Shown in pieces: positions 3,582 through 37,145 of a stretch of 44,231 nt of DNA. The first letter of the stretch is position 1. Each line of letters starts with the position of its first letter. The stretch covers positions 1-44,231 of the IMG/VR virus record IMGVR_UViG_3300045988_042325, one strand, 5' to 3'. The translations under genes were made by a program, and so were the position numbers. The notes under the pieces were generated by a model. It was given only the letters and a program-made list of their open reading frames with translations. It was not told the origin of the DNA and did no database searches. Source of the stretch: a virus.

Positions 3582-3659
3582 AACATCCTCCTATACGTGA
3601 TTATTAAAACCGCCCGTCAGCGGTAATGGATTAAGCCGGGTAAACCTCCGGCGGGGTAG

Positions 3660-3732
3660 TTGGAACAGGCGGATTCGAACCGCCGACACTCTGGTTATGA
3701 GCCAGATGCTCTAGCTGCTGAACTATGTTCCA
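3660..3732 (-). tRNA. tRNA with CAT anticodon (Met, or Ile2 if lysidine-modified)
   Basis: 73-nt cloverleaf: acceptor TGGAACA/TGTTCCA; D arm GTTC-AGCAGCTA-GAGC; anticodon arm TCTGG-CTCATAA-CCAGA; T arm GGCGG-TTCGAAT-CCGCC. Confidence 0.85.
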
Positions 3733-3794
3733 AAAAAATCCACCCAAGTCATAGACCATCTGTAAACAGATAGCTTAACTTTAAGCGGATAAAA

Positions 3795-3865
3795 GTGGAG
3801 CACCAGGAATCGAACCTGGAATCCAGGGTGCTACCCTGTCGGTTTGCCATTAACCGTATGTTCCA
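3795..3865 (-). tRNA. tRNA-like gene with non-canonical anticodon arm (possible AGC anticodon or pseudo-tRNA)
   Basis: 71 nt. Acceptor TGGAACA/TGCTCCA has one A.C mismatch. D arm CGGT-TAATGGCAA-ACCG and T arm CCAGG-TTCGATT-CCTGG are canonical. The anticodon arm CAGGG-TAGCA-CCCTG gives a 5-nt loop, or a 4-bp stem with loop GTAGCAC. Confidence 0.5.
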
Positions 3866-4128
3866 CTGGGGGGGACTGCTACGCTTAGATTGTCACACCA
3901 TAAAGGCAGTTTTCAGCGTACTTAACAGGTATGATTTCTACTTGTAGGAGAAAAGCAAGTAGCTTGCACACGCCGGAAATTGCATCCGCTTTTCAACCTC
4001 TCAGTATTGCTACTGATTTCTCTTAAGGACGTGTGCCAGAAAGGAGGTAAGAAAAAATACAACAGATATATCGTTTCCGCAATTTTATTTTACCAAAAAC
4101 GCTATTATATTTTGTCCCCACCTCAACG

Positions 4129-4551
4129 CTATGTTTCTGCCAGTTTCTGTATCTGGCGCTGGATTTCCCGGCGTTCCTCCTGGAAATCGCTGTCAACAAC
4201 CATAGAGGAAAGCATATCATAAACTTCTACCATCAAACGTCCAACGGTCTCCATCAGCTTGTCCCTGTGAGCCTGGTCACCGTTGGTGTGATACGCTTCT
4301 TTGGCTGCAAGGTAAGCGTCATACAGTGAATCAATATTATGATCATACCGTCCATTACTGTATTTTTTTACCAGATCTTCCGCTACTTCTGCCACTGTGT
4401 CACTTTCCCACTCTCCACACATCTTTTTCATGTTGCAGATCGTTGTGGTCAGCTTAAACATGGTATCCAAGTTGGCACCTGTCAGTTTTTCTTTGGCGCT
4501 TCTTTCTTCGACCTCTAACTGCTTTTCCAAAATCTTAATCATGTCTCTCAT
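4129..4551 (-). CDS. Hypothetical helical protein (accessory module in head region)
   Basis: 140-aa ORF in an operon with its neighbours. No recognisable motif. Confidence 0.6.
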   Translation of the reverse strand: MRDMIKILEKQLEVEERSAKEKLTGANLDTMFKLTTTICNMKKMCGEWESDTVAEVAEDLVKKYSNGRYDHNIDSLYDAYLAAKEAYHTNGDQAHRDKLMETVGRLMVEVYDMLSSMVVDSDFQEERREIQRQIQKLAET

Positions 4552-4562
4552 TGTCTCACCAC

Positions 4563-5153
4563 CTATTTAAAAATCTCGGACAGTTTCGTTTTATACTTAT
4601 CGTGGATCTCCGGCTGTGTCTCTGTGATGTAAACCATGTCATACCCGGAAGAGATCAGATCAATCATAATACTCTCCAACTTCTTTAACTCACCATCCAC
4701 ATTTTCCACCAGTTTTTCCACAACCAATGCATCAGATACGGCCCCCAGTTCTCGCAGTTTTGAAGCGTAGTGTTCATATAGAGACTTGGTCTCTGCTTCC
4801 CATGCTCTGTACTGGTTAAATCCATCTTCGATTCCTTTTTGCTTTGTGGACTTGCCTACGCTGATTCGGTTGGCAGAAAGCCAGTTCTCCGGTATCACTT
4901 CCACCTGTCCGATATACGTGTCCTCGATCAACTTATTATGATGGTTTATGTAATACTGGTTCAGTTTCTTCCGCTCTAGGGACTCGTCAAAATACTGATA
5001 CTCATGGAGTCGCTTATATCCTTTCATTCCAAGGAAATCAAAATAGTCGGTCATCTGGTCATGAAGCATCAGAGCGGCAATCATACGGGCGTTGATCTCG
5101 GAAAAGATCGCTTCCACACTGGCAACGTCCTTTTTGCTCTTAAAGGTAATCAT
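4563..5153 (-). CDS. Hypothetical protein, possible ferritin-like four-helix-bundle fold
   Basis: Start moved to ATG 5153 (MITFKSKK), with an AGGAGGTGA RBS 6 nt upstream. The helix pattern 'LHDQMTDYFDFLGMKGYKRLHEYQYFDESLERKKL' and 'VENVDGELKKLESIMIDLISSG' resembles ferritin helices B and D by eye. Canonical ferroxidase ligands are not evident. Confidence 0.55.
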   Translation of the reverse strand: MITFKSKKDVASVEAIFSEINARMIAALMLHDQMTDYFDFLGMKGYKRLHEYQYFDESLERKKLNQYYINHHNKLIEDTYIGQVEVIPENWLSANRISVGKSTKQKGIEDGFNQYRAWEAETKSLYEHYASKLRELGAVSDALVVEKLVENVDGELKKLESIMIDLISSGYDMVYITETQPEIHDKYKTKLSEIFK

Positions 5154-5165
5154 ACCGATCACCTC

Positions 5166-5594
5166 CTACGAAAGCTTTTTAATGATGAGGTTTGCGTCCT
5201 TGACAAGGACTGCTCCAGCGGAAATATTACCCACAGATACGGTAAGAGATGTTCCGGCCGGTACCGGGATCAACGTGTCTGCACTTACATTCTGATATAC
5301 ATCTGCTGTAACAACCGTATAATCCATCTCGGTTCCACCGATGTTCTCGCCGTTCAGCTTAAGCACCAGTGCTGTTGCACCAGCCGCAGAAGCCGTCACA
5401 TTTGCGTTAAACTGGAGTTCTACCGCCATCGGCTGATTGCTCCTGTTTGTGATTGTAAATAGCCCACTTCCCTCGATGTGATTGAGCCATCCACTCTGAC
5501 ATCCGCATCTGCGAGACTTTACGCGAGTGCTACCAAAAGGAACATTCTGATTGGCTGCCACCGTCTGAGCAGCTACATTAACAACATTAAGCAT
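5166..5594 (-). CDS. Possible TNF/C1q-like (BclA C-terminal-domain-like) jelly-roll protein
   Basis: 142 aa, beta-rich, with pattern 'GLFTITN...LQFNANVTASAAGATALVLKLNGENIGGT...SADTLIPVPAGTSLTVSV...ANLIIKKL', similar by eye to exosporium BclA-CTD-type domains. GAAAGGAG RBS. Confidence 0.5.
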   Translation of the reverse strand: MLNVVNVAAQTVAANQNVPFGSTRVKSRRCGCQSGWLNHIEGSGLFTITNRSNQPMAVELQFNANVTASAAGATALVLKLNGENIGGTEMDYTVVTADVYQNVSADTLIPVPAGTSLTVSVGNISAGAVLVKDANLIIKKLS

Positions 5595-5865: not shown

Positions 5866-6551
5866 AGTACGTTTCCACCGTTACCGCAGCAACCGCCGAA
5901 CCCGGTCATGTTGTAAGCAAAGTAAGGGGAACAGGTGAGATAAGCCGGTGTAGGTGTTGGACGAACCGCATCCACGATGTTTTTGGTCTGGTTGACCTGG
6001 GAAATCTGCCAATACGCTGTCTGGAGGTCTCTGTCTCGGTCTGCAATTTTGTCGCGGAGTCCCTGGATAGTGTTCTCCTGCATGAGCTGGCGTGTAGCCT
6101 GTCCATCCGCTAAGATGCTTTCCTTGATGTCGCAGCAGCACTGAGCCAGCTGAGCCTGCATGTTCTGCGCCATCAGCGCCGCATCATAACGGTTCTGGAG
6201 TACTTCTTTCTGCGTATTGCAGTTGCCAACCTGTACCTGACTTCCAAGATTCTGTAAGCCAAGCTGGTTCGTGTATCTGTTTTCGAGTATGTCTCGCTGT
6301 GTCTGACATGCAGTGTTACTTACGTTCTGGTTGGTGTTAAAGATGTCCCTCTTGACAAATTCGTCAGAGATAAAGTTGTCCTGGACTCCGGTATCAATAC
6401 CGTTTCGATTCCATCCACCCATCATTGGGAACAGGAATGCGATCAGAATAATCCAGATCCACCAGCCACCGCCGCCCCACATATCGTTGCAGCCGTCATT
6501 GTTGCGCGTTACTGCTGCTACATCAGCCGCGCTTAACATTCCATCTGTCAT
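5862..6551 (-). CDS. Membrane protein, Q/N-rich with Cys clusters
   Basis: 229 aa. Has a Trp/Gly-rich TM segment 'GGGGWWIWIILIAFLFPMMGGW', a long Q/N-rich helical region, 'QCCCD' and a C-terminal 'GFGGCCGNGGN'. AAGGAG RBS. Confidence 0.7.
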   Translation of the reverse strand: MTDGMLSAADVAAVTRNNDGCNDMWGGGGWWIWIILIAFLFPMMGGWNRNGIDTGVQDNFISDEFVKRDIFNTNQNVSNTACQTQRDILENRYTNQLGLQNLGSQVQVGNCNTQKEVLQNRYDAALMAQNMQAQLAQCCCDIKESILADGQATRQLMQENTIQGLRDKIADRDRDLQTAYWQISQVNQTKNIVDAVRPTPTPAYLTCSPYFAYNMTGFGGCCGNGGNVL

Positions 6552-7446: not shown

Positions 7447-7647
7447 TCAACACACTTTGATTATTTTTCTATTTACTCTAATGCTAATCCGTTTCACCGT
7501 TGACACACTGATATTCATTCTTTCGGCGCACTCCTCCAACGGTACTCCCTGGCTCCGATACTCAAAAAGTACCCTCTCATCTGGTGTAAAGTTGGCAAGC
7601 TGCCGAAAACGGTTCAGTTCCGGCACAGTGAATTCATAGACTTTCAA
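7447..7647 (-). CDS. Small sigma-70 region-4-like HTH regulator
   Basis: 66 aa. 'TPDERVLFEYRSQGVPLEECAERMNISVSTVKRISIRVNRKI' matches the region-4/LuxR-type HTH pattern. Confidence 0.65.
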   Translation of the reverse strand: MKVYEFTVPELNRFRQLANFTPDERVLFEYRSQGVPLEECAERMNISVSTVKRISIRVNRKIIKVC

Positions 7648-20658: not shown

Positions 20659-20961
20659 TCATAAGTAGTTCTTGCCAAACTCTCCCATAAACTCTTCCCG
20701 ACTCCCGTAATGGCTCTCATAATACTCCTGTGCCATTTCCTTTAACTTCCTGTCGATCTCCAAATTTTCTTTCGTTCTTGCGAAGTTCGCGCCGTTTGGG
20801 TGTAAGTCTGGTCTTAATGGAATCACAAAACCTCTTTTTTCGGATTTCACTTTGTAGCCCTGCCGCCCCTCAAAAATGTGGTGGCGTTCTACATTCGGTG
20901 ACCCGGTAAAATAGCAATGATCCATATCATCGGTAAATGCGCTCCATAGCTTTTTAGCCAT
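20659..20961 (-). CDS. Hypothetical Cys/His protein
   Basis: Start moved to ATG 20961 (MAKKLWSAF), which overlaps the upstream stop (ATGGCTAA). Contains motif 'HCYFTGSPNVERHHIF'. Confidence 0.55.
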   Translation of the reverse strand: MAKKLWSAFTDDMDHCYFTGSPNVERHHIFEGRQGYKVKSEKRGFVIPLRPDLHPNGANFARTKENLEIDRKLKEMAQEYYESHYGSREEFMGEFGKNYL

Positions 20962-21526
20962 CTTTTCTCCTGTTCTGATCATACAGATCGAGCATCCTTT
21001 GTAATTCTTCCGGCGTTGCCGTCTCAATGCCGCATTCCTTACACTCTGACACCAGTCCATCTATTAATTCCGACATTTCCCGCGTATCATAGTCACTGGA
21101 GCCTTTTAACATCACGTATGTACGATACGTTACCCCGTCGCTCCCAGATACGGTCTGTGAGGTTGGTCTGATGTGATATGTTGACGCTTCCATAGCCATT
21201 TTCTCGGCTTTTTCTGTGTCCGGTATACGGATATATGCCTTGATCCCGTCAATCAGTAAATTTTGACCGTAGCGGCGCAACATCATGTTATGAGCGCACT
21301 GCTTTGAGATCTTCATGTACTCTGCCAGTCTGGAAAGCAGCACCCAGTAGTAAGCGTTACTGTCAAGGCTCCGCTTTTCCCTCCAGATTTTGGCGGTGAT
21401 CTTCAAATCTTTCTGGTTGATGGAATCCGCTTGACTGCTTACATCATCGTCAACCTCAAACGCCACCTGGAATTTCCCGGTTCTCCAATCTTTTTGTACG
21501 GTGATCAGTCTCCCTTTACATTCCAT
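20954..21526 (-). CDS. ninB: NinB/Orf-like recombination mediator
   Basis: 'REKRSLDSNAYYWVLLSRLA' and 'GSSDYDTREMSELIDGLVSECKECGIET' parallel lambda NinB 'ERNRSLDQNRKLWACLGDV' and 'GQSTSRMRVGEFAELLELIQAFGTERGV'. Adjacent to the annealase. Confidence 0.6.
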   Translation of the reverse strand: MECKGRLITVQKDWRTGKFQVAFEVDDDVSSQADSINQKDLKITAKIWREKRSLDSNAYYWVLLSRLAEYMKISKQCAHNMMLRRYGQNLLIDGIKAYIRIPDTEKAEKMAMEASTYHIRPTSQTVSGSDGVTYRTYVMLKGSSDYDTREMSELIDGLVSECKECGIETATPEELQRMLDLYDQNRRKDG

Positions 21527-22287
21527 TATTTAAACGGGACTCCCTCCTCATTCTCTGGTGGTACAGTGCTTGGATCAACGCCACCTGTTGATTTTGACGG
21601 TGTTTTCTCAAACGCTGCCATTGCTCTTTTAAACTGGTCAATCGTCAATTCAGCCAGCGTTGTTCCTCCAATCGCCTTTAAAATCGCTGACTTTGGTTTT
21701 CCAATGCGATTGCATCCGCTTAAAAAGGTCTGCCGCATTTCTTCCGTTGCATATTCCGGTTGATCTGATTTCATGGAAAAAACCACTGTATTTTTGCATT
21801 TGATAACCAGATCAACGATATTCTTTTTTTTGTCATATCCAATCTTGCTTACGGTAAAGCGATCATTGCACGTATAAACAGTCTTTCCTCTGGAATCAGT
21901 TCTCCCAGTACTTACGAGTTTGCATTTTTCAGACGGTACCCAGATAAACGGAGCTGTGTAAAGTTCCCGTCCAATACCCCAGTTGAAGCAGGCACGCTTA
22001 AAGCTATCCGATGCAAGTCCTTTTTCTTTCTCTGTATAACTTTCCGTGCCAGTGTCCTCTTTTGATATCCACTGTTTCTTCTCATCGTCCCACAGGCTAA
22101 CTGTACAGTTTGCGTTGTCCCGGCTATGACTTCTCTGCCAGTTCATCGGTCCTACTGTCTCATCAAGGATATTCTGATCCACTCTAGCATCCTTATAAAG
22201 TAATAAGGACACGCCTTTTTCACTTACCGTTGCTATCCTACAATCAATTTCAGACGCTTCTAGCAAACGGAATGATAATTCTGCCAT
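21526..22287 (-). CDS. Rad52/Sak-type single-strand annealing protein
   Basis: 'RVDQNILDETVGPMNWQ' and 'KGLASDSFKRACFNWGIGRELY' are the family signature. Confidence 0.85.
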   Translation of the reverse strand: MAELSFRLLEASEIDCRIATVSEKGVSLLLYKDARVDQNILDETVGPMNWQRSHSRDNANCTVSLWDDEKKQWISKEDTGTESYTEKEKGLASDSFKRACFNWGIGRELYTAPFIWVPSEKCKLVSTGRTDSRGKTVYTCNDRFTVSKIGYDKKKNIVDLVIKCKNTVVFSMKSDQPEYATEEMRQTFLSGCNRIGKPKSAILKAIGGTTLAELTIDQFKRAMAAFEKTPSKSTGGVDPSTVPPENEEGVPFK

Positions 22288-22295
22288 ACCATCAC

Positions 22296-22781
22296 CTACT
22301 TAATCTGCATATTCTGTCTCTTTGTAAGAGACGCCCCCTCAATAACCTCTCCGGCCTTTAATGCCTTTTTCAAAGCCATCTTGTCCACTTCTGGATCTTT
22401 AACCTTTATGTATTCCTCCGGAAGAGCTGTGACATCTCCCACATACTCAACCGCCTCCGATGATCTCCAAGACACAGATACCCTAGGTGTGGAGAATTTT
22501 TCTCCGTTTAACGCCATTGCAACCCATCTCTTTAAACTCTCCGCTCTTTTCTCTGCCTGCTGCTGACGCTCCGCAAAAGCCATCTTTTCTTTCTTGAGTT
22601 CCTCGGCATCGCTGACCAGATTCTTGATCCAGAGTAACACACCCTCAATCTTCTGGTCTCTGGCTTCCTGGAGACTGTCCAGTGCCGCATATGCGGCTTC
22701 ATTCACAATTTCACCTGTCTCTGGATCTACTGCTTGCTCAAAAGCCTGCATAATCATTTCGTCAATTTCGTACAGTTTCAT
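22296..22781 (-). CDS. Siphovirus Gp157-like protein
   Basis: 'MKLYEIDEMIMQAFE...', a central coiled coil, and 'FSTPRVSVSWRSSEAVEY...LPEEYIKVK' match the Gp157 family pattern. Confidence 0.8.
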   Translation of the reverse strand: MKLYEIDEMIMQAFEQAVDPETGEIVNEAAYAALDSLQEARDQKIEGVLLWIKNLVSDAEELKKEKMAFAERQQQAEKRAESLKRWVAMALNGEKFSTPRVSVSWRSSEAVEYVGDVTALPEEYIKVKDPEVDKMALKKALKAGEVIEGASLTKRQNMQIK

Positions 22782-28841: not shown

Positions 28842-29036
28842 AAAAGCACGTTGGAATTTGTACCCACAGAAAAAACGCCCGGTGCTGCAACACCAGACGT
28901 TTTGAATAATTGGGATGATACGCTGATACACTATCAACCTACACACTTATTGTATCATCCCAGACTCAGCCATGCAAGATAAATTTCCAAAATCTGGTAA
29001 GGCTGTATTTTTTTATACCCAAAAGGAGGATACACT

Positions 29037-30170
29037 ATGGCAAATGCAAAGAAATTACCGTCTGGATCATGGCGGTGTCTGGTCTTTAGCCACACGGAGC
29101 ACGTGTTGGACGAAAAGACCGGGGAACTAAAAAAGGTAAAACGCTACCGCTCTTTTACCTCTGATCTCCCAGGAAAAGCCGGGAAAAAGGAAGCAGAGCG
29201 AGCCGCTGCCGAATGGCTGGCAAATAAACCAAAAAGCAACGCATCCATGCAGTATACACTTGATAATATGACACTGAGGGAAGCGGCTGAAAAGTACATA
29301 GATATGTGTGTGTCGCTTAATCGGTCTCCTTGTACGATCCAGGACTACCGCTGCATCTTGAACAACGGATTCCAGGATCTCTTTGATCTGAAGCTAAAAG
29401 ACATTGACGAAATGATCCTGCAAGAAGCTGTTACGATGGAGTCGAAGCGCACAACCAATGGAAGAACCAAAAGACCATTGTCTGCAAAGCGTCTGAAAAA
29501 CGAGTGGGGATTGGTAAGTGCTACACTCCACAAATACAAAAAGAGCATCGACACCCATGAGATACATCTTCCGTCTGTGCCGGATCGCATCCCGGAGCTG
29601 CCCGCAGCTGACGTTGTGATTGACCTGGTACGTGGGACAGAAATAGAACTTCCGGTGCTGCTGGCTATGTGGTTATCCTTTTCCATGTCTGAGGTACGTG
29701 GACTTACAAAGTCAAAATCAATTAAAGACGGATGCATCACGATCAATGAAGTGGTTGTGGACGTAGACGGAAAGCCTATCAGAAAGGGCGATCCAAAAGA
29801 ACCTACACGAAGAAGATCACACAGAATTCCTCCATATATCATGAACTTGATCGACCAGGTAGATGGTGATGTCTTGGTGCCAATCAGCGGCAAAGCACTT
29901 TATCACCGATGGATTAAGCTCCAGAAAAAAGCCGGAATGGAGCCGATCACCTTTCACGATCTGCGGCACGTAAGTGCTTCCGTAATGGCTCTTTTACAGA
30001 TCCCGGACAATTACGCCCAGGAACGTGGTGGCTGGAAGAATGATAAAATAATGAAAAAAGTGTATATTCAAACATTTTCTGAGGAAAGGAAAATGGTAGA
30101 TAGCAAGATAGACTCTTACTTTGAAAGTAAAATACAACACGAAATACAACACGAAAAGAAAAAAGCCTAG
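29037..30170 (+). CDS. int: Tyrosine integrase
   Basis: 'ITFHDLRHVSAS', 'ERGGWKND' and 'KKVYIQ' fit the catalytic H-x-x-R, (H/W) and Y boxes. Adjacent to attP. Confidence 0.9.
   Translation: MANAKKLPSGSWRCLVFSHTEHVLDEKTGELKKVKRYRSFTSDLPGKAGKKEAERAAAEWLANKPKSNASMQYTLDNMTLREAAEKYIDMCVSLNRSPCTIQDYRCILNNGFQDLFDLKLKDIDEMILQEAVTMESKRTTNGRTKRPLSAKRLKNEWGLVSATLHKYKKSIDTHEIHLPSVPDRIPELPAADVVIDLVRGTEIELPVLLAMWLSFSMSEVRGLTKSKSIKDGCITINEVVVDVDGKPIRKGDPKEPTRRRSHRIPPYIMNLIDQVDGDVLVPISGKALYHRWIKLQKKAGMEPITFHDLRHVSASVMALLQIPDNYAQERGGWKNDKIMKKVYIQTFSEERKMVDSKIDSYFESKIQHEIQHEKKKA
30134..30155 (+). repeat. 22-nt direct repeat copy 1 (candidate integrase arm-type site)
   Basis: ACAACACGAAATACAACACGAA, itself two tandem 11-mers. 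Lies in the last codons of int. Confidence 0.7.
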
Positions 30171-30186
30171 TAAATACTAGGCTTTT
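30164..30186 (+). terminator. Terminator after int
   Basis: AGCCTAGTA-AA-TACTAGGCT followed by TTTT. The stop codon lies inside the stem. Confidence 0.55.
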
Positions 30187-30190
30187 CGAG

Positions 30191-30220
30191 AGCGCGAGAC
30201 GGGACTCGAACCCGTCAAAC
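30191..30220 (-). other. attP core: 3' fragment of a tRNA gene
   Basis: The minus strand reads ACGGG-TTCGAGT-CCCGT (T arm), then the acceptor 3' strand CTCGCGC, then T. No D or anticodon arm lies upstream. Confidence 0.6.
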
Positions 30221-30339
30221 GCTTACATCCAAAAACTGCGTAATTGCTTTATTTCCTTTATTTATGCGTATTCTTAACTCTCGTAAATTTTACTTAAATA
30301 TCATATTTGATACTATTTTACAGTATTTAAGACAAAAAG

Positions 30340-30361
30340 ACAACACGAAATACAACACGAA
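30340..30361 (+). repeat. 22-nt direct repeat copy 2 (candidate arm-type site)
   Basis: Identical to 30134..30155. The two copies flank the tRNA fragment. Confidence 0.7.
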
Positions 30362-30582
30362 GTATTTAAAATTTAAGTGTATAAATATTCCATGAGAAGT
30401 TTTGAAGAATTTCAGAATTATGATGAATAAATTAGGTTTTATTTTCAATCATACCTCGATTCGTGTTTAGAACGGCAAGGTTACCATTCTGCAAATTTCC
30501 TTTTTTGATGGCTTTTTTAAATATTGAGTAATACAAAAAGCCCACTAAAATTGAGCAACATAAATAAAAAGGTATTCTTATA

Positions 30583-30611
30583 TTGATAAATTAAATTGAG
30601 TATACTATAAT
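30583..30611 (+). promoter_or_regulatory. Near-consensus promoter of the RHH gene
   Basis: TTGATA, 17-nt spacer, TATAAT. The spacer contains ATTGAGTATAC. Confidence 0.6.
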
Positions 30612-30634
30612 TAAGAAAAAAGGAGGTTAAACAA

Positions 30635-30838
30635 ATGGAATTATTGGAAGCAAAAAGAAAGTTAGAGCAACGCTATAACAAGCAAAATGAATATAATAAG
30701 AAGAATTACGACAGAGTTTCCGTGATGTTCCCGGCTGGATATCGTGACAAAGTAAGGGCGATCGCAAGCAGCGAAGGGAAAAGCCTAAACGCCTACATAC
30801 TTGAGGCTGTGCAAGAAAAGATAGAAAAAATTGAGTAA
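30635..30838 (+). CDS. Ribbon-helix-helix (Arc/CopG-like) DNA-binding protein
   Basis: 67 aa. 'YDRVSVMFPAGYRDKVRAIASSEGKSLNAYILEAVQEKI' fits a beta-strand-helix-helix pattern. AAGGAGG RBS. Confidence 0.7.
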   Translation: MELLEAKRKLEQRYNKQNEYNKKNYDRVSVMFPAGYRDKVRAIASSEGKSLNAYILEAVQEKIEKIE

Positions 30839-30852
30839 TATGAAAAAAACTA

Positions 30853-30881
30853 TTGACAAAATATATTGAGTAATATATAAT
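30853..30881 (+). promoter_or_regulatory. Consensus promoter downstream of the RHH gene
   Basis: TTGACA, 17-nt spacer, TATAAT. The spacer contains ATTGAGTAATA. Confidence 0.6.
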
Positions 30882-31015
30882 AGTGTTATCAAAAGAAAAC
30901 AGGATGAGAAGAAGCACAGTATGAGGAATACGAGATCGAAGTCGAACTCGGATAAGGCGCAAAATGTTATAATGACAGTGTCAAAGGAAATCCAAAATGA
31001 AAGGGGAATGAAAAA

Positions 31016-31246
31016 ATGTTAAGCAAAAGCGAAAAAGAAGAAATATTAAAAAAATGTACAAACATGTCAGAACATGACATAAAAAAGCATATTCAGAACG
31101 GAGCTTGTTTTTATCCAAATAACGATGAGGGCTATAAGGCTTATTTTGACGAGTGTGTTGCAGGTTTAAATGATGAATATGAAATTCCTGATATGTGGAA
31201 TTCTTTAGACATTATAGAAAATTATAGAGTCGATTTCATATCGTAA
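31016..31246 (+). CDS. Hypothetical acidic protein
   Basis: 76-aa ORF with an AAAGGGGA RBS-like sequence upstream. Confidence 0.55.
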   Translation: MLSKSEKEEILKKCTNMSEHDIKKHIQNGACFYPNNDEGYKAYFDECVAGLNDEYEIPDMWNSLDIIENYRVDFIS

Positions 31247-31320
31247 AGTTTTTATGGAAAGGTAAAGATCATGAGCAAAATTGATGACATGAGAGCCGAG
31301 ACCAGAAATATTGAGAGATT

Positions 31321-31366
31321 GAGTGGGCATAGTACTTTGCGAGGGTAGAATGCCCACTCGTTTTTT
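31321..31366 (+). terminator. Rho-independent terminator
   Basis: GAGTGGGCAT...ATGCCCACTC (10-bp perfect stem) followed by GTTTTTT. Confidence 0.7.
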
Positions 31367-31419
31367 ATTTTAATACTTACAATCAAAAAATCAACCTTTT
31401 TCGGATAAAAAAGCGACCC

Positions 31420-31902
31420 ATGAATTTTCTCATGAGCCGTTTTTATGGATTTTTTAACCTGTTAAACGGTGCGGTGGATGTAATCAATGATTTACAAACA
31501 ACCGTGGCGAAGCAGGCCAGTGCGATTGATACGCTAAATAGCAAGAACATTGGCAAAATTTATCATAAATATGGAAATGTTATCGCTAAAAAGAACACAT
31601 ATGTAGAAATTTGCCAGGTGTCAGTACCAGCAGGTGTATACATTATTTGCGCTATTGTTGGTATTAATATTGCAGATCCTAATAATATTATGAGTTTAAA
31701 TATTTCGCTGTTTGATAATGCAACAGGACAAAAAATTACAGAACAAATTGCAAGAACTACATCATCTAGTGGTGGTGGGTGTTCTACTACTATTGCTGTG
31801 AATTTAGATAATTCCGCAAGTGTAGTTTTATTATCTTATGGATATATTAGCGATAAATCTTATAATTTTACGGGAGACTTATGGGCAGTAAAATTAGGAT
31901 AA
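31420..31902 (+). CDS. Silent alternative tail-fibre C-terminal cassette (Cv2) with a fortuitous start
   Basis: Residues 13-42 'NLLNGAVDVINDLQTTVAKQASAIDTLNS' are identical to the fibre protein encoded on the opposite strand. No RBS before ATG 31420. The unrelated 119-aa C-terminal domain ends 'DLWAVKLG'. Confidence 0.6.
   Translation: MNFLMSRFYGFFNLLNGAVDVINDLQTTVAKQASAIDTLNSKNIGKIYHKYGNVIAKKNTYVEICQVSVPAGVYIICAIVGINIADPNNIMSLNISLFDNATGQKITEQIARTTSSSGGGCSTTIAVNLDNSASVVLLSYGYISDKSYNFTGDLWAVKLG
31455..31544 (+). repeat. Inverted repeat, left arm (90 bp, 100% identical to the reverse complement of 32670..32759)
   Basis: Verified base by base. Flanking bases differ on both sides. Confidence 0.95.
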
Positions 31903-32111
31903 TACCAAATGTTACTTTTTGCTCCAATTTTGCCAGTTTCCATCAGTCTTGCACCTAGTAAGAACCGCAATACTACTAGTACTGTATGTTATAAACAAAT
32001 AGTATGATCACCAGGGGTAATCCATAACGGAGTGTATTTTAATCTTGGAACGGAGATTATTCGGTTCTGGATTTATGACGGTGTTTTTGATAAAAAAAAT
32101 ATATAATCAAA

Positions 32112-32375
32112 TTACCCGATAAACTTTTTGAGTTCCCAAAAAAGTATTGTTAATTCTTGTGATACAGTAGAGAATACCCACCATTTCCCGGAATCCTGCA
32201 TAATTGTAGCGTTATATGAAAGAGTCGAAGAATTTTCAAATATAACAGGTATTACAGTTTGATACCCTTCTGTCCCTGGGATCTCAACGGCTTGATTTGC
32301 CACTGCATTGACTACATGCTTATGGCGATAGATTTCTGCTTTATTACCATTTGTATGATTAAGTCGCGATAAGCT
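32112..32375 (-). pseudogene. Third, decayed tail-fibre tip cassette (Cv3) or small accessory ORF
   Basis: The frame is open from just after the fibre stop. It has no ATG or RBS (GTG at 32303 only). 'RLNH..EIYRHKHVVNAVANQAVEI' versus Cv2 'TLNS..KIYHKYGNVIAKKNTYVEI' gives about 8/18 identities by eye. Confidence 0.4.
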
Positions 32376-32380
32376 TCAGT

Positions 32381-33157
32381 CTAAAAAGTACTCCAATTTG
32401 TCCATTTGCCATTATTAAATGCTCGTGTAGCCCGTTTATTATAGACATCAATATAAATCTGTACATATACGGCTTTTGTATTGGTTGAATGAACAGTGTA
32501 TGGGCTCCGCATACAGAAGAGAATTCCGTAACTTGAAAATCCAGAAGGTAAAGCACCGATATTTTCGCCCGTTACATAATACACGCCTGTACGTTCGGGA
32601 CTATTTAAGCTGTTTGTCTCTGCTTTGACGGTTACATTAATTCTGTTAGCCGAAGTAAGGTCGGTTACATTGCTATTTAGCGTATCAATCGCACTGGCCT
32701 GCTTCGCCACGGTTGTTTGTAAATCATTGATTACATCCACCGCACCGTTTAACAGGTTAGTCACCCGTAAAAGCCCCTGTTCTGTGTTATTGAGATGCTC
32801 TGCGTCAATATCCGGTTCTGAATTATTGACGTACTCAGTCGGTACATAATCGGCCAGTTTGTTCAAAGCAGCATAGGTAGACACCAGTAGTGCGGACTCA
32901 AGAGTTGCTGGATCATTTGCTGGATCTGTGACAACCTCTGTGGTGGTATCCTTTTCCGCTCCGTTTTCTTCCGTATTTGTGGTGCTGCTATTCTCTGTGC
33001 TTTCTTCTGAATCAGACTTCGAAGTATTAGACTCCTCCTGGGCGGTGTCAACATTCTGGTCTGATGTGTCGATGATCGGTGTTCCGTCTCCGTTGATAAT
33101 GTCGGTGTCTGAATCTGGATATTCGGTTTCGGTTGCAATTGGTTTATTTTCTTCCAT
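32381..33157 (-). CDS. Tail fibre / receptor-binding protein with exchangeable C-terminal tip (Cv1 currently expressed)
   Basis: Start moved to ATG 33157 (MEENKPIATE), with an AAGGAG RBS. It has an acidic S/T/D/E-rich N-terminus, then the constant helix encoded by the IR, then the tip '...GVYYVTGENIGALPSGF...NGKWTNWSTF'. Confidence 0.75.
   Translation of the reverse strand: MEENKPIATETEYPDSDTDIINGDGTPIIDTSDQNVDTAQEESNTSKSDSEESTENSSTTNTEENGAEKDTTTEVVTDPANDPATLESALLVSTYAALNKLADYVPTEYVNNSEPDIDAEHLNNTEQGLLRVTNLLNGAVDVINDLQTTVAKQASAIDTLNSNVTDLTSANRINVTVKAETNSLNSPERTGVYYVTGENIGALPSGFSSYGILFCMRSPYTVHSTNTKAVYVQIYIDVYNKRATRAFNNGKWTNWSTF
32670..32759 (-). repeat. Inverted repeat, right arm (inside the tail-fibre gene)
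   Basis: The reverse complement is identical to 31455..31544. Confidence 0.95.
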
Positions 33158-33167
33158 TTGTTTCTCC

Positions 33168-34058
33168 TTATACACATTGAATTTTATAAATATTATATTC
33201 ACATTCTGCTGATGACTGGATTCCAAGGAACACATATATATACTTCATTTTTGATCTTTGATCTGATGTATAGTTGTCAAGGTTAAGGACCCATTCTGTT
33301 TGTCCATCGGCTGTCATTATTCTTACATCAACGATGGCTCCAAGACTTGTCAACCATTCATTGCCCATAGCATTTGCTAACTGGTCTGTAAAATAATTTT
33401 CTGTTATCAGCAGGCTAAGACCTTTTCCTTGAATTTTATCGGCTATGATTTTTACTTTGCTTAACTTAGTAAAATCCAATGCTTTTGCAAATCCAATCGC
33501 AATGCCCTCGTAAAATCCTCCGGTAAATATCCAGTATGCATCTTTTATGATTTTTGCGCTACCGAGAGTGTATTTACCTGATGTAATTTTTACCAAGTCT
33601 GTTGTAAATCCAGGGCCTAAAGTGCCATAATAAAATGGCATGTTGGGGTCTTCGTTGAGATACCCTTCCCACGTTCCAGGACCTATGCCTGCTACATACA
33701 TGCCTTTTTTTATGACTGCGGATGTAAGGTTGGCGATTGGCTTTAATTCTATGTTTCCGGTTGCGTACTTTCCACTAGTTTTTACGGTTATTGAATTTTT
33801 CCCAGTAACGATTGTTTCACCGTTATATGTTGGAACAGATGATTTTACAGTACCGCCGCCGTAGTAACCAGAAGGAAGTACGATAGACCCATTCAGTGGT
33901 AAAGTTTTCTGGGGTGATCCGTTATCTAGTTTTGTGCCTACACCCTTATCACCGTTAGATTTCATATATGTCTTTCCGATCAGTACATCGGACTCAGTAG
34001 CGGTTACGGCGGTACTATCAACCGTAACTCCATTTTTTTGCAGCAAACATTCTCCCAT
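33168..34058 (-). CDS. Tail fibre/baseplate-associated protein
   Basis: 296 aa. The N-terminal 'ATESDVLIGKTY' motif is shared with the upstream 140-aa ORF. Position is between baseplate and fibre genes. Confidence 0.65.
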   Translation of the reverse strand: MGECLLQKNGVTVDSTAVTATESDVLIGKTYMKSNGDKGVGTKLDNGSPQKTLPLNGSIVLPSGYYGGGTVKSSVPTYNGETIVTGKNSITVKTSGKYATGNIELKPIANLTSAVIKKGMYVAGIGPGTWEGYLNEDPNMPFYYGTLGPGFTTDLVKITSGKYTLGSAKIIKDAYWIFTGGFYEGIAIGFAKALDFTKLSKVKIIADKIQGKGLSLLITENYFTDQLANAMGNEWLTSLGAIVDVRIMTADGQTEWVLNLDNYTSDQRSKMKYIYVFLGIQSSAECEYNIYKIQCV

Positions 34059-34480
34059 TACTCAAATCCCTCATAAATTCCAGTGATTGCTTGACTTCCC
34101 TCGCCTACCACTACACCTCTTTTTATATAAGCAGGATTAAAGTTTTCAGCGGCAGTAATCGTAACATCTCCTTGCATGTAATTTCCAGCAACCTCCACAG
34201 TAACGCCATTTCCTCGTGGGGAAGCTGAAAATGCAGCTTTCAAAGGAACTTCTTTCTGCGTTATTTTCTGCTCTTTTTGGTGATCTCCGGCTGGAATGTT
34301 GTAAGTACCATTAATCTCAATAATTACATCAGATATGGACGCAGCTGGCATACTTCCTGTTTGAAGGGTGTCTACCTCTGCACCGAAAAATGTTTTTCCG
34401 GCAGCTACATCTTTCGGCAGTGCCGTATACTCTTCTGGATAGTATCGACCTCCCTGTTTAAGTAAAAACGCCTCTGCCAT
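34058..34480 (-). CDS. Tail-associated protein, paralogous N-terminal motif
   Basis: 'LPKDVAAGKTFFG' resembles 'TESDVLIGKTYM' of the next gene. Confidence 0.6.
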   Translation of the reverse strand: MAEAFLLKQGGRYYPEEYTALPKDVAAGKTFFGAEVDTLQTGSMPAASISDVIIEINGTYNIPAGDHQKEQKITQKEVPLKAAFSASPRGNGVTVEVAGNYMQGDVTITAAENFNPAYIKRGVVVGEGSQAITGIYEGFE

Positions 34481-34481
34481 C

Positions 34482-34958
34482 TTACTCCCCCTTTAAAGCA
34501 ATTTGAAATGTTGATGCTGGTTTTTGATTATAGCAATAAAGCGTAATATTACCTGTTCCGGTGGTGATTCTGTCCACATATCCATAAGCTCGCCCTTGCT
34601 CCTTTGCCTGGGTTCCTGTGGTGCCATCTGGAAGATATAGGGACACGATCGGTGTATGCGTTGATAGGATTCCTTGCACGTTTACTGTCTGTCGATATGG
34701 TGCCGATGCTGACCAGCCAGAAACCGGAATTGTGACGTATCTAACGTTTTTCATGTCTCGCCCAAGCTCGGCTATATCGGTCTCATTTTTATTGACCTGT
34801 GTATTTGTCCGATTGACATCTCCAGCAGAATAAACGTCACCCTCCTGGGTGTACTCCGTAATATCTTCGATGTATACGCTTCCATCATCGTTCTGGGTGA
34901 TCTTATATTTTTTCTTTCCGGCAAAAATATCGTCTTTATATGTGGTTTTTAAGCTCAT
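34482..34958 (-). CDS. Tail/baseplate protein
   Basis: 158-aa ORF in the tail module. Confidence 0.6.
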   Translation of the reverse strand: MSLKTTYKDDIFAGKKKYKITQNDDGSVYIEDITEYTQEGDVYSAGDVNRTNTQVNKNETDIAELGRDMKNVRYVTIPVSGWSASAPYRQTVNVQGILSTHTPIVSLYLPDGTTGTQAKEQGRAYGYVDRITTGTGNITLYCYNQKPASTFQIALKGE

Positions 34959-35395
34959 AGGCTCACCTCCCTGTTGCCAAGTGATCTCGTACCAATCCGG
35001 AACGATAAATGGTTTAGTCCTGGGGACGCTTTTTCTATCAGTGTTCCGAGATCGTATATGATCCGTTCGATTGCATTAGCCTGGTATATTGATGTATATG
35101 TGATTCTGATCGGTGTCAGCGGTGTACTGTCCGGTGTATAATATGCACTTCGGATAGCTTCGATATTTTTTCTTAGTCGAATCATATCGGCTTCGGTACG
35201 GAAATCATTCGGCTGCCAATTCAACTTGTTATTGGTGGTATTTTTGTACCCCTTTCGATTAAGAACATAGGACACCCATTTTACCGCCGATTCAATCCGG
35301 TTGAGATCAGTGTAATCTATATAGGCTTTGGCCGCCATATTGTCTATGTCAGCCTGTGTCCGGTCAAATATCAAGCTATCAAGATATTTACTCAT
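34955..35395 (-). CDS. Tail-associated protein
   Basis: 'DRTQADIDN...YIDYTDLNRIESAV' is a pattern common in Firmicutes prophage fibre-associated proteins. Confidence 0.6.
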   Translation of the reverse strand: MSKYLDSLIFDRTQADIDNMAAKAYIDYTDLNRIESAVKWVSYVLNRKGYKNTTNNKLNWQPNDFRTEADMIRLRKNIEAIRSAYYTPDSTPLTPIRITYTSIYQANAIERIIYDLGTLIEKASPGLNHLSFRIGTRSLGNREVSL

Positions 35396-37145
35396 GTATC
35401 GTTACCCTCGCTTTAACTTCCCTGGTGAAAGTAGGATCAATGCTTTCGATGATTCCCTCTCTTATACCATCATACCCGGTATCTACACGCACTTTGTCCC
35501 CCAACTTCTTATCGCCCAGAAGCACATCTCCCACCACGTTCTCTGCCCGCTGATAGTAGGCATAAATCCGTTCAAGGGCAGTCTGTCCATTTGATGGATT
35601 GATTAATGTTGCATCTGTAACTTCTTTGATATTTTTGTTAAAGATGATATCTGGGTTATCTTTGGAAATCACCGATGTACTGTGGCTGTATTTGCCGCCC
35701 GTTAAGGTTACTGTGCCGCCTGTTCCAGTCACTACCGCATAGTTAACTCCACTCTTTACAATCGTTCCACCGGAGACAGAAAGACTATGATGTGGCTCTG
35801 AGAACACGATCTCAGCCGTCCCGTTCAGTGTGTCTTTGTAAAGCTCCTCTGTTTCGGAAATCTGCGTGTAAGTATGGGTAGTAAGTCGCACACCGGTTAC
35901 GATATCGCTATGCTCCAGTGTCAGCCCGGTAAAAGTGTTGTGCTCGTTAAATTCACCTGTCACTTCTGTGGCCTGTGGATAAATATCCACGCCCTCTACA
36001 TTGGACGTATCCACGATGGCACCAATAGCAAAGGCAATCTGCACAAGAGCGTTTCTTTTCGTGGTGTACGGGATGTACCCGGTCAATGTTGCATCCTTAT
36101 AAGCATCATCCAGGGTGTAACCGAAATCCTCATTTGCGAAGATCTCCGTGAGGACTTCTGACAGCTTGCGGCCTGCGTAGATACCGCCCACGTACTCATT
36201 ACCGTCCAAGACTCCCAAAGCATCGTGAGAATCCATATAATAGTCCGTCTTATTCTTCCTTGCGCCAGACTTTAAGTAAAAATTGCCAAGCAGATCGCCG
36301 TTAAAATACAGACCTAACCGCTGCTTTTTCTGGAGGTCAAACGGAATATTACTTTTTGTGCGGACGGTAAAGGAAAGGGTGTTGATACTGATATTCTCGG
36401 AAATGGCGTTGATCTCCTGCAAACAATCGGTCTGCATCAATTCGTCATCCAGGAAATCTCTATAAATACCATAATCAATTCTAGTCAAAAAGACTGGTCT
36501 GTGCGGCTTTGATGTGGATTTAAAGGTGATCACGATCTTGTTGTAGTTATGCACATACTGATTGCAGAAATACCGCACGCCATCCGCAGTAAAGTCCTGG
36601 TTAGCCAGTAACGTGGTATCCTCATACCATTTAACATTCAGATCTTTAGCATAGTCTCCAGATAACATATTAAATGTAAAGAGAATTCCTACACTGGTGA
36701 ATTTACCATTAAATGTGATCGTAAGTGCCGGGTTATTCATCACCGTTTCCTGTGTACCACCAGGGAAAAGAAAAATACGTGGATGCAGTGCCGTGTGTGG
36801 CTTCAATCCTTGCTTGCTGATCTGATATCCAAAATCGCCGTTATCATCGCTATACTCGCTTGAGATATAGCCATAATCCGCCGGGTCTTCTGGGAAATTG
36901 ATATAATCACCATTTAACAGGGAGAAGCCGGGATAACACAGGGCATATCCAGGGTAAGACAAATCATCACGCCGGAGATCCGGGAACTGGCGCTCTATGG
37001 TGGTCTGTTTTGGATAAAGACCAGCATGAGGATACAGTCCTTTCCTTGGATACAGTCCAGCCTTGATGATCTGCGGAAGACTGTTCTCTTTTGCGTATGG
37101 TGCCACGTCATCATATACGATTTTTAAACCCTCATTGTTTGCCAT
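35388..37145 (-). CDS. Tail-associated lysin-position / baseplate hub protein (Tal-like)
   Basis: 585 aa after moving the start to ATG 37145 (MANNEGLKIVYDD), which overlaps the upstream TGA. Position is after the Dit-like gene. Confidence 0.65.
   Translation of the reverse strand: MANNEGLKIVYDDVAPYAKENSLPQIIKAGLYPRKGLYPHAGLYPKQTTIERQFPDLRRDDLSYPGYALCYPGFSLLNGDYINFPEDPADYGYISSEYSDDNGDFGYQISKQGLKPHTALHPRIFLFPGGTQETVMNNPALTITFNGKFTSVGILFTFNMLSGDYAKDLNVKWYEDTTLLANQDFTADGVRYFCNQYVHNYNKIVITFKSTSKPHRPVFLTRIDYGIYRDFLDDELMQTDCLQEINAISENISINTLSFTVRTKSNIPFDLQKKQRLGLYFNGDLLGNFYLKSGARKNKTDYYMDSHDALGVLDGNEYVGGIYAGRKLSEVLTEIFANEDFGYTLDDAYKDATLTGYIPYTTKRNALVQIAFAIGAIVDTSNVEGVDIYPQATEVTGEFNEHNTFTGLTLEHSDIVTGVRLTTHTYTQISETEELYKDTLNGTAEIVFSEPHHSLSVSGGTIVKSGVNYAVVTGTGGTVTLTGGKYSHSTSVISKDNPDIIFNKNIKEVTDATLINPSNGQTALERIYAYYQRAENVVGDVLLGDKKLGDKVRVDTGYDGIREGIIESIDPTFTREVKARVTIHE

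Follow-up and report, generated by a model that had tools for sequence, protein, structure and literature searches.

Inversion of short DNA segments is used by phages and plasmids to exchange the tips of their adhesins, and here we compare such systems with a putative tail-fibre tip switch in a virus genome, IMG/VR record IMGVR_UViG_3300045988_042325 (positions 1 to 44,231; this whole stretch of 44,231 nucleotides is called the window below). In the window, the end of a tail-fibre gene and an alternative end for the same gene lie in opposite directions within a segment bounded by two perfect 90-bp inverted repeats, which we call arms. Among the systems already described, the G segment of Mu, the C segment of P1 and the Min system of p15B rely on a serine invertase (Gin, Cin and Min, respectively), gix or cix dyad sites and a Fis-dependent enhancer, and each orientation comes with a second gene (U/U′); the P1 segment is flanked by long inverted repeats of about 0.6 kb. 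The shufflon of plasmid R64, on the other hand, depends on Rci, a tyrosine recombinase with a distinct C-terminal domain, and on 19-bp sfx repeats in the pilus gene pilV.

More recent reports have described shufflons in phages of gut bacteria. The Rin shufflon of Bifidobacterium prophages has an Xer-like recombinase, 11-bp rix sites, a constant part of 168 amino acids (aa) and variable parts of 95-100 aa (Mavrich et al. 2018, PMC6109161), and it has been reported in Eggerthella lenta prophages too (PMC8778435). In the bifidophages Bb423phi2 and 689b-1, two dissimilar gene ends are inverted between relatives at a short repeat, in a locus that no recombinase flanks, and an invertase acting in trans was proposed (PMC6109161). 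A BV01-like phage of Phocaeicola vulgatus carries a shufflon with directional 10-bp motifs and a flanking recombinase, for which reads support all configurations (PMC13596623, a 2026 preprint). In the literature that we searched, we found no description of a Lachnospiraceae-associated shufflon family.

Our reading of the locus is that it is a stripped-down remnant of a Rin-type tyrosine-recombinase tail-fibre shufflon with two cores left, a core being the short repeat at which tips join the constant part of the fibre, and that its segment still flips, to which we give a probability of about 60%. The window is a temperate gut phage genome of ~44 kb whose structural genes occupy the minus strand; last in the late operon is the fibre gene (32381-33157, minus strand, 258 aa). 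The parts of the locus are listed here in window coordinates; Cv1, Cv2 and Cv3 are the tip cassettes, and E and L are two of the slots defined below.

31321-31366, plus strand: terminator convergent with the next one (inverted repeat I11; terminator scan; RNA fold -27 kcal/mol, z -6.2).
31404-31439, minus strand: fibre (late) operon terminator, of the intrinsic type and immediately outside the L arm (terminator scan and RNA fold).
31455-31544, plus strand: left arm (L slot), with a core at 31535-31544 and, before it, 79 nt copied from the constant part.
31545-31902, plus strand: Cv2, the silent tip, 119 aa and a stop codon.
31903-32111, no strand: spacer of 209 bp from the Cv2 stop codon to the convergent one of Cv3, collinear with the related locus L029.
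32112-32345, minus strand: Cv3, a third tip cassette, directly downstream of Cv1 and in direct orientation.
32344-32353, minus strand: degenerate hybrid core (CAAATGGTAA vs TAAATAGCAA) at the junction of the Cv1 3′ flank and Cv3.
32381-32669, minus strand: Cv1, the tip expressed in the assembled orientation, 96 aa and a stop codon.
32670-32759, minus strand: right arm (E slot), which encodes the 30 C-terminal residues of the constant part (NLLNG...DTLNS).
32760-33157, minus strand: constant part of the fibre upstream of the arm, with its ATG start at 33157 and AAGGAGAAACAA before the start codon (open reading frame list and translation).

A repeat search found the two arms to be 100% complementary over 90 nt (90/90), with 1125 nt between them. 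An 87-nt probe taken from the arm has 0-mismatch matches at these two sites only, 0/100 dinucleotide shuffles match, and the bases differ both just outside the arms (TTT vs GAC) and just inside them (GAA vs TGT). The perfect inverted repeat that a first-pass annotation had reported is therefore unique in the window, and both arms do encode the same 30 residues in frame (NLLNGAVDVINDLQTTVAKQASAIDTLNS). The right arm lies within the fibre gene, and its inner end (32670-32679) is the 10-bp core TAAATAGCAA; the left arm is contained in a plus-strand open reading frame (ORF) at 31420-31902 (160 aa). When the 1,125 bp between the arms are inverted in silico, the constant part is joined in frame to Cv2 in an uninterrupted fibre of 281 aa, as had been predicted, and a second ORF of 137 aa joins the former leader of Cv2 to Cv1. 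The segment holds only Cv1, Cv3, the 209-bp spacer and Cv2, so that the earlier account, which recognised two tips, had missed the third cassette at 32112-32345.

That account had also described an unrelated 12-aa N-terminus (MNFLMSRFYGFF) ahead of the left arm. The terminator scan and RNA fold identify this stretch instead as the hairpin of the minus-strand fibre-operon terminator, which consists of a 10-bp hairpin (31439-31414) followed by the T-run CTTTTTTATCC (-15.8 kcal/mol, z -4.4). The idea that the flank of the left arm is a diverged copy of the shaft was dropped, given a base match of ~39% by eye, which is near random for AT-rich sequence. The terminator flank is conserved in six relatives (L001, L029, L034, L044, L049 and L052), as would be expected because the terminator, judged by its place just outside the invertible segment, is predicted to serve both orientations. 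The convergent terminator on the plus strand (31321-31366) is the stronger of the two, and its position predicts that it keeps transcription of the plus-strand ORFs upstream from reaching the silent cassette.

The origin of this arrangement can be approached through its relatives. Related-locus and exact-protein searches yielded near relatives whose backbones are 93-98% identical to that of the window (L001, L002, L029/30/31, L034, L041-45 and L048-52; L numbers denote loci, and P numbers proteins). Eleven IMG/VR relatives have no inverted repeats of >=25 nt apart from two weak ones, and short cores were therefore looked for. The 10-bp core TAAATAGCAA was found, exact, before every tip in L001, L002, L029/30, L034, L035, L043/44, L048-50 and L052. 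It is asymmetric, both of its immediate flanks vary, and it is the sole element common to all crossover points, at no fewer than 12 loci. The conserved outer flanks of the cores define the slots, namely E (expressed), L (beside the operon terminator) and the distal R1 and R2.

The arrays of the relatives have 4-5 cores, and a recombinase gene lies inside the array, between L and R1; it adjoins the cassettes in at least 10 relatives (L001, L029/30, L034, L035, L043/44, L049/50 and L052). Its product, of 331-354 aa, is an Xer-like tyrosine recombinase (NF040815, 221 bits; PF00589 and a SAM-like core-binding domain; nearest structures PDB 4a8e and 1a0p, XerC-like and XerD), distinct from the integrase, and the relatives carry both. 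Furthermore, L048 differs from L049 and L050 in the orientation of a 646-bp segment with two tips (the P0007 tip and the P0044 tip), which is inverted at 99.7% identity and has breakpoints that coincide exactly with the cores. As a consequence, L048 expresses the P0007 tip (P0092), whose copies in L049, L050, L052 and L033 are silent. From the comparison of these loci, we regard it as shown that the relatives carry a multi-inversion system in which a tyrosine recombinase acts at the 10-bp core. The expectation that both orientations would be found among relatives was thus borne out for this 646-bp segment, while no flipped version of the window's own segment was found.

Two further observations concern the spread of such loci. 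L002 (cores at 6479 and 7013) is a second relative that has no recombinase, with two inverted cores around a 534-bp module of two tips, and in L001 this module is found again, between slots R1 and R2. In Terrisporobacter phage TPELB_ph1 (L047, PP197244), a gene for an Xer-like 'integrase' (4435-5430) lies between the gene in the tail-fibre position and the holin gene, and a separate 1.6-kb gene bears the annotation 'integrase' as well; the Xer-like gene may encode an invertase that has been overlooked. No convincing core-type repeats were found in the cultured phages with similar recombinases, phiCs5676-1 and TPELB_ph1.

The tips themselves fit the picture of exchangeable cassettes. The constant part, which is 93-97% identical in L001, L029 and L041-44, is modelled by AlphaFold2 with an acidic, low-confidence N-terminus followed by helices at 83-103 and 124-168, and it ends in ...AIDTLNS, where the codons for L-N-S-(K/N) are the exact 10-bp core TAAATAGCAA. 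Among the proteins retrieved, at least 24 unrelated tip families are fused to this same constant part exactly at LNS|K/N. Neither the fibre nor the tips of the window have a family match in Pfam, PHROGs or NCBIfam; other tips in the relatives carry H-type lectin domains. P0033/34/36 have Cv1 as their expressed tip, and silent copies of it occupy the L slot (P0061) and the R2 slot (P0062). Cv2 lies in a silent position in L029-31, L036 and the window, and it is likewise silent as P0001-3; L035, at 96.8% nucleotide identity, expresses it in frame on a different fibre (...QAIETLNS|KNIGK) that adjoins an inverted cassette and the recombinase. Cv3, of which the 63-aa ORF at 32112-32303 is a part, shares 92-93% identity with the tip that P0013/P0022/P0023 express, and it is the expressed tip in L029 (P0023) and L030. 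Both tips of the first-pass annotation are real, in-frame fibre heads with a predicted fold, and the same cassettes are expressed or silent in relatives. Fibres with constant regions unrelated to that of the window also carry these cassettes (L035 2912-4387 for Cv2; P0063/P0064 for Cv1), at 86-97% identity and joined at the same ...ETLNS junction; cassettes therefore move between phage lineages.

Structure prediction, which had been proposed as a check on the tips, gave results of unequal quality. Cv2 is modelled with confidence (pLDDT 86.7) as one long coiled-coil helix followed by 8 strands, and its Foldseek matches are jelly-roll or TNF-like heads, including the short tail fibre CBD of cyanophage A-1(L), Pgp3 and the BC2L-C lectin; its predicted fold is a TNF-like, jelly-roll beta sandwich after a coiled coil. 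The model of the whole fibre with Cv1 is poor (pLDDT 55.7), and its weak Foldseek matches, to the R1 pyocin fibre and to knobs of phage fibres, are for that reason only suggestive of a pyocin or phage-fibre knob; one homologue of Cv1 is named 'pyocin knob domain-containing protein' in its source record. By Foldseek, the folds of Cv1 and Cv2 differ.

Several features of these loci recall Rin. The relatives of the window have a phage-encoded, Xer-like armless tyrosine recombinase beside the cassettes, a likeness at the general level of the Xer family, and their inversions break exactly at the repeats. Moreover, a short asymmetric repeat precedes each cassette (11 bp in Rin and 10 bp here), the variable C-termini, of 80-120 aa, follow a constant N-terminal part of ~165 aa, and some sites lie in direct orientation downstream of the expressed tip. 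The differences are in the hosts (Actinobacteria in Rin vs Lachnospiraceae here), in the core (TTCCCTAACCC vs TAAATAGCAA) and in the place of the recombinase gene, which in the relatives lies inside the array, between two invertible segments of two tips each. The window departs further from Rin, since it has no recombinase of this kind and one of its cores is extended to a 90-bp arm. What it retains are an exact core at both arms and three dissimilar, promoter-less cassettes for one constant part. With the recombinase gene missing, the window is therefore a derivative and not a complete Rin-type member, and the alignment with its relatives shows a locus derived, with two cores remaining, from their multi-inversion system.

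The resemblance to other systems is more limited. Like the locus of Bb423phi2 and 689b-1, the window has dissimilar gene ends in inverted arrangement and no recombinase flanking them; those phages differ in having an 8-bp site and genes of unknown function, while the window has 90-bp arms and a clear descent from a shufflon with a recombinase. The BV01-like shufflon shares 10-bp directional motifs between non-homologous cassettes, which form the distal end of a tail-fibre gene, but belongs to a phage of Bacteroidota, with the motif TGGGAGAACT, three cassettes and an unrelated fibre. The R64 shufflon is alike in its multiple inversions by a tyrosine recombinase, in having one conserved side to its sites and in swapping the C-terminal tips of an adhesin; it acts on the plasmid pilus gene pilV and not on a phage fibre, and its 19-bp sfx repeat differs from the core.

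The comparison made in the first-pass annotation was with Mu G, P1 C and p15B, and it holds for the layout of an inversion system, in which a constant fibre part is combined with alternative inverted C-terminal parts that set host range. It does not extend to membership, because the window has no serine invertase, the core is asymmetric and there is no second gene of the U/U′ type. If this were nevertheless a switch of that class, the 90-bp repeats would contain the sites for a serine invertase of the Gin/Cin/Min family, and only the shared layout speaks for it. A tblastn search with a Gin sequence (an approximate query) matches nothing in the window, Pfam finds no resolvase family in the 10 neighbouring ORFs or in 43 further ones, and the relatives have a tyrosine recombinase beside their cassettes. 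No gix-like dyad site is apparent in that the common crossover element is the asymmetric 10 bp, the gix consensus itself not having been scanned for. We consider a Mu-type switch extremely improbable.

How the window came to differ from its relatives can be read in part from synteny. Three features outside the fibre locus matter here.

20954-22781, minus strand: phage homologous-recombination module (PHROG matches).
29037-30170, plus strand: prophage integrase of the tyrosine family, with a length like that of lambda Int.
30433-31309, plus strand: cargo region of 0.9 kb that replaces the recombinase gene and the R1 and R2 slots of the relatives, with synteny breaks relative to L001 and L029.

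No recombinase besides the integrase was found in the window by tblastn with the relatives' recombinase and the Gin query or by Pfam in 53 ORFs, and only two exact copies of TAAATAGCAA are present, one in each arm. The integrase was ruled out as the invertase, as it is unchanged in relatives with and without the shufflon recombinase. Compared with L029 and L001, Cv1 and 35 nt of its native 3′ flank lie between the E core and Cv3, and the core before Cv3 is therefore the hybrid CAAATGGTAA: homology to L029 ends at this hybrid core, and homology to the Cv1-expressing L041-44 ends at ACAAATGG. New tips thus appear to be 'stacked' at the E core, with the older tip pushed downstream behind a hybrid core. 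Since a proper core is missing, it is predicted that Cv3 cannot be fused to the constant part by inversion or simple deletion. An analogous stacking is seen in L052 (about 7556-7570), where the hybrid core is TTATGTAGCAA and the breakpoints inside the core differ from those in the window.

The long arm has arisen at the other end. Most relatives have only ...TTTTTTAAGCCG[C/A] before the L core, but in the window, 79 extra nucleotides copied from the constant part lie between ...GGATTTTTTAA and the core, and this extension makes the 90-bp arm. The spacer between the L core and the terminator hairpin exists in three length alleles (...TATGCCTC, ...TATGGATTTTTTAAGCCGC and the 79-nt extended one; L043 2211 vs L044 2334), and the outer flank of the L core is therefore unconstrained. 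The same long allele, with the same recombinase-less flank, was found in an independent contig (L033, ERZ1745364), which is 99.3% identical to window 30980-31546 (567 nt) and has a different tip directly after the core; cassettes have therefore turned over in, or just before, the lineage of the window and L033.

L048 also has two 90-nt arms (1612-1701 and 2662-2751) with 0 mismatches to each other, and both have C at position 8, where the window has T. Its contig ends exactly at the outer end of the second arm, which could reflect a branching assembly graph and so a mixture of orientations in the sample. L048 was considered as proof of concerted evolution of the arms and then dropped, because its distal arm, at the contig end and with no visible outer flank, could equally be the E-slot arm of a flipped subpopulation; its arms are not used as evidence here.

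Assemblies of repeated sequence call for caution, and an assembler that joined strain variants might have created the long left arm or set the orientation of the segment. If the largest k-mer of the assembler was shorter than the 90-bp repeat, the orientation would rest on read pairs. Against such an artefact, the junction between terminator and long arm is identical in the independent sample of L033, both junctions of Cv2 and Cv3 are collinear with L029/L030/L031 (98.5%), those of Cv1 are collinear with L041-44, and the identical sequence in ENA (ERZ652199 NODE_184) has a contig coverage of 153x. An artefact of this type is very improbable.

A different question is whether this copy still flips. 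The first-pass annotation assumed an active switch and took the perfect identity of the arms as a sign of ongoing recombination. The first assumption finds no support in the window, which encodes no invertase, so that any flipping depends on something else. The second is weak evidence, because the nearest relatives, whose backbones diverge by 1.5-3%, do not have the long arm, and the arm may be young. These facts invite the explanation that the locus is a frozen relic: a recently orphaned shufflon remnant, locked on Cv1, in which Cv2 and Cv3 are decaying passengers and the 90-bp repeat is a recent side effect of the same rearrangement by which the recombinase was lost. The missing recombinase, the degenerate core of Cv3 and the absence of a flipped variant in protein searches agree with this explanation, as does L002, which is likewise recombinase-less, and at the divergence just given, 0 mismatches in 90 nt would be expected fairly often. 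On the other hand, both cores are exact, the Cv2 ORF is intact and its predicted fold is confident, L033 shows another tip after the core despite a 99.3% identical recombinase-less flank, and 90 bp of perfect inverted homology in a phage with Erf, Orf and Gam should recombine at some rate. We take a frozen relic to be a possible outcome, though less likely than not.

Under our reading of the locus as a shufflon remnant, its two remaining cores, one in the E slot and one inverted, bracket Cv1 (expressed), Cv3 (dead, behind its hybrid core) and Cv2 (silent and inverted). Inversion of the 1,125 bp would then exchange a knob-like Cv1 head for a jelly-roll Cv2 head on the same shaft, and the hairpin just outside the left arm would terminate transcription in either orientation. 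We lean towards the view that the segment still flips at a meaningful rate. Homologous recombination across the perfect 90-bp arms, by the phage Erf/Orf/Gam proteins or by host RecA, is a tentative route; the recombination module of the window has genes for a Gam-like protein (22296-22781), an Erf-like annealing protein (21526-22287) and NinB/Orf (20954-21526), assigned by PHROG, and is the candidate driver of such arm-arm events. Another route, and an unlikely one, would be through a related phage resident in the same host that provides an Xer-like invertase in trans for the two intact cores. It is equally doubtful, in our opinion, that the shufflon has become a recombinase-independent host-range switch after the loss of its invertase, with a core extended to 90-bp arms, inversion left to general homologous recombination (Erf/Orf/Gam or host RecA) and gene conversion keeping the arms identical.

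Several results weigh against a remnant that is still in use. Among 5.8 billion protein clusters, we found neither the constant part of this backbone joined to Cv2 (at >50% tip identity) nor the ORF joining the long leader to Cv1, although the power of both searches is low, given that the window's own arrangement is recorded only once. One metagenome scan revealed no flipped copy of this phage, although it did yield L035, where Cv2 is expressed on a different shaft, and searches of IMG/VR for the exact arm, leader, core+Cv2 and core+Cv1 patterns gave nothing beyond L001. To this must be added that the tblastn and Pfam scans found no invertase gene in the window, that the decayed core of Cv3 shows parts of the module to be eroding, that the perfect identity of the arms is compatible with a young duplication, and that the association of the long arm with recombinase loss rests on a single lineage (the window and L033).

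The rest of the genome is in keeping with a temperate phage. Beyond the fibre gene lie the small plus-strand cargo region, the integrase gene and then a CI/M78 lysogeny module. The cargo region has an Arc-like ORF (30635-30838, with an Arc domain match) and a 76-aa ORF (31016-31246). Around the Arc-like ORF, a repeat of 17-21 nt with the core ATTGAGTAATA occurs in 4-5 copies (30519-30881), and two near-consensus sigma-70-type promoters lie beside it (30583-30611 and 30853-30881); together they look like operators for a small repressor-like protein. Adjoining the integrase gene are direct repeats ACAACACGAAATACAACACGAA (30120-30155 and 30326-30361), and between them, at about 30195-30240, there is a stretch that resembles the 3′ end of a tRNA (GGTTCGAGTCCCGTC); the whole (30120-30361) is probably an attP with arm-type sites. 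Elsewhere, genes for tRNA-Met (CAT) and tRNA-Ala (AGC) lie on the minus strand at 3659-3866, and one of 43 other ORFs scanned has a BclA C-terminal domain (PF18573, E 8.9e-6). A near-identity DNA search of GenBank phages gave no match to window 29000-35400, and no exact protein record was found for the window's own fibre protein; related fibre genes are present in metagenome-assembled genomes of Lachnospiraceae and in one Enterocloster genome.

Tail-fibre tips set host range, and temperate phages with relatives in Lachnospiraceae and Enterocloster have a large pool of exchangeable tips, of at least 24 families, for one shaft with a fixed 10-bp junction. Their loci add a third major gut phylum to the two, Actinobacteria and Bacteroidota, with phage shufflons of the tyrosine-recombinase type, and the fixed junction offers a precise point for engineering or predicting host range. 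The long arm of the window is the one twist in an otherwise known kind of system, here degenerate. As a phage that has lost its invertase and gained long homology arms, the window is a natural experiment, and if its segment is still flipping, it would show how programmed variation can outlive the loss of its dedicated enzyme.

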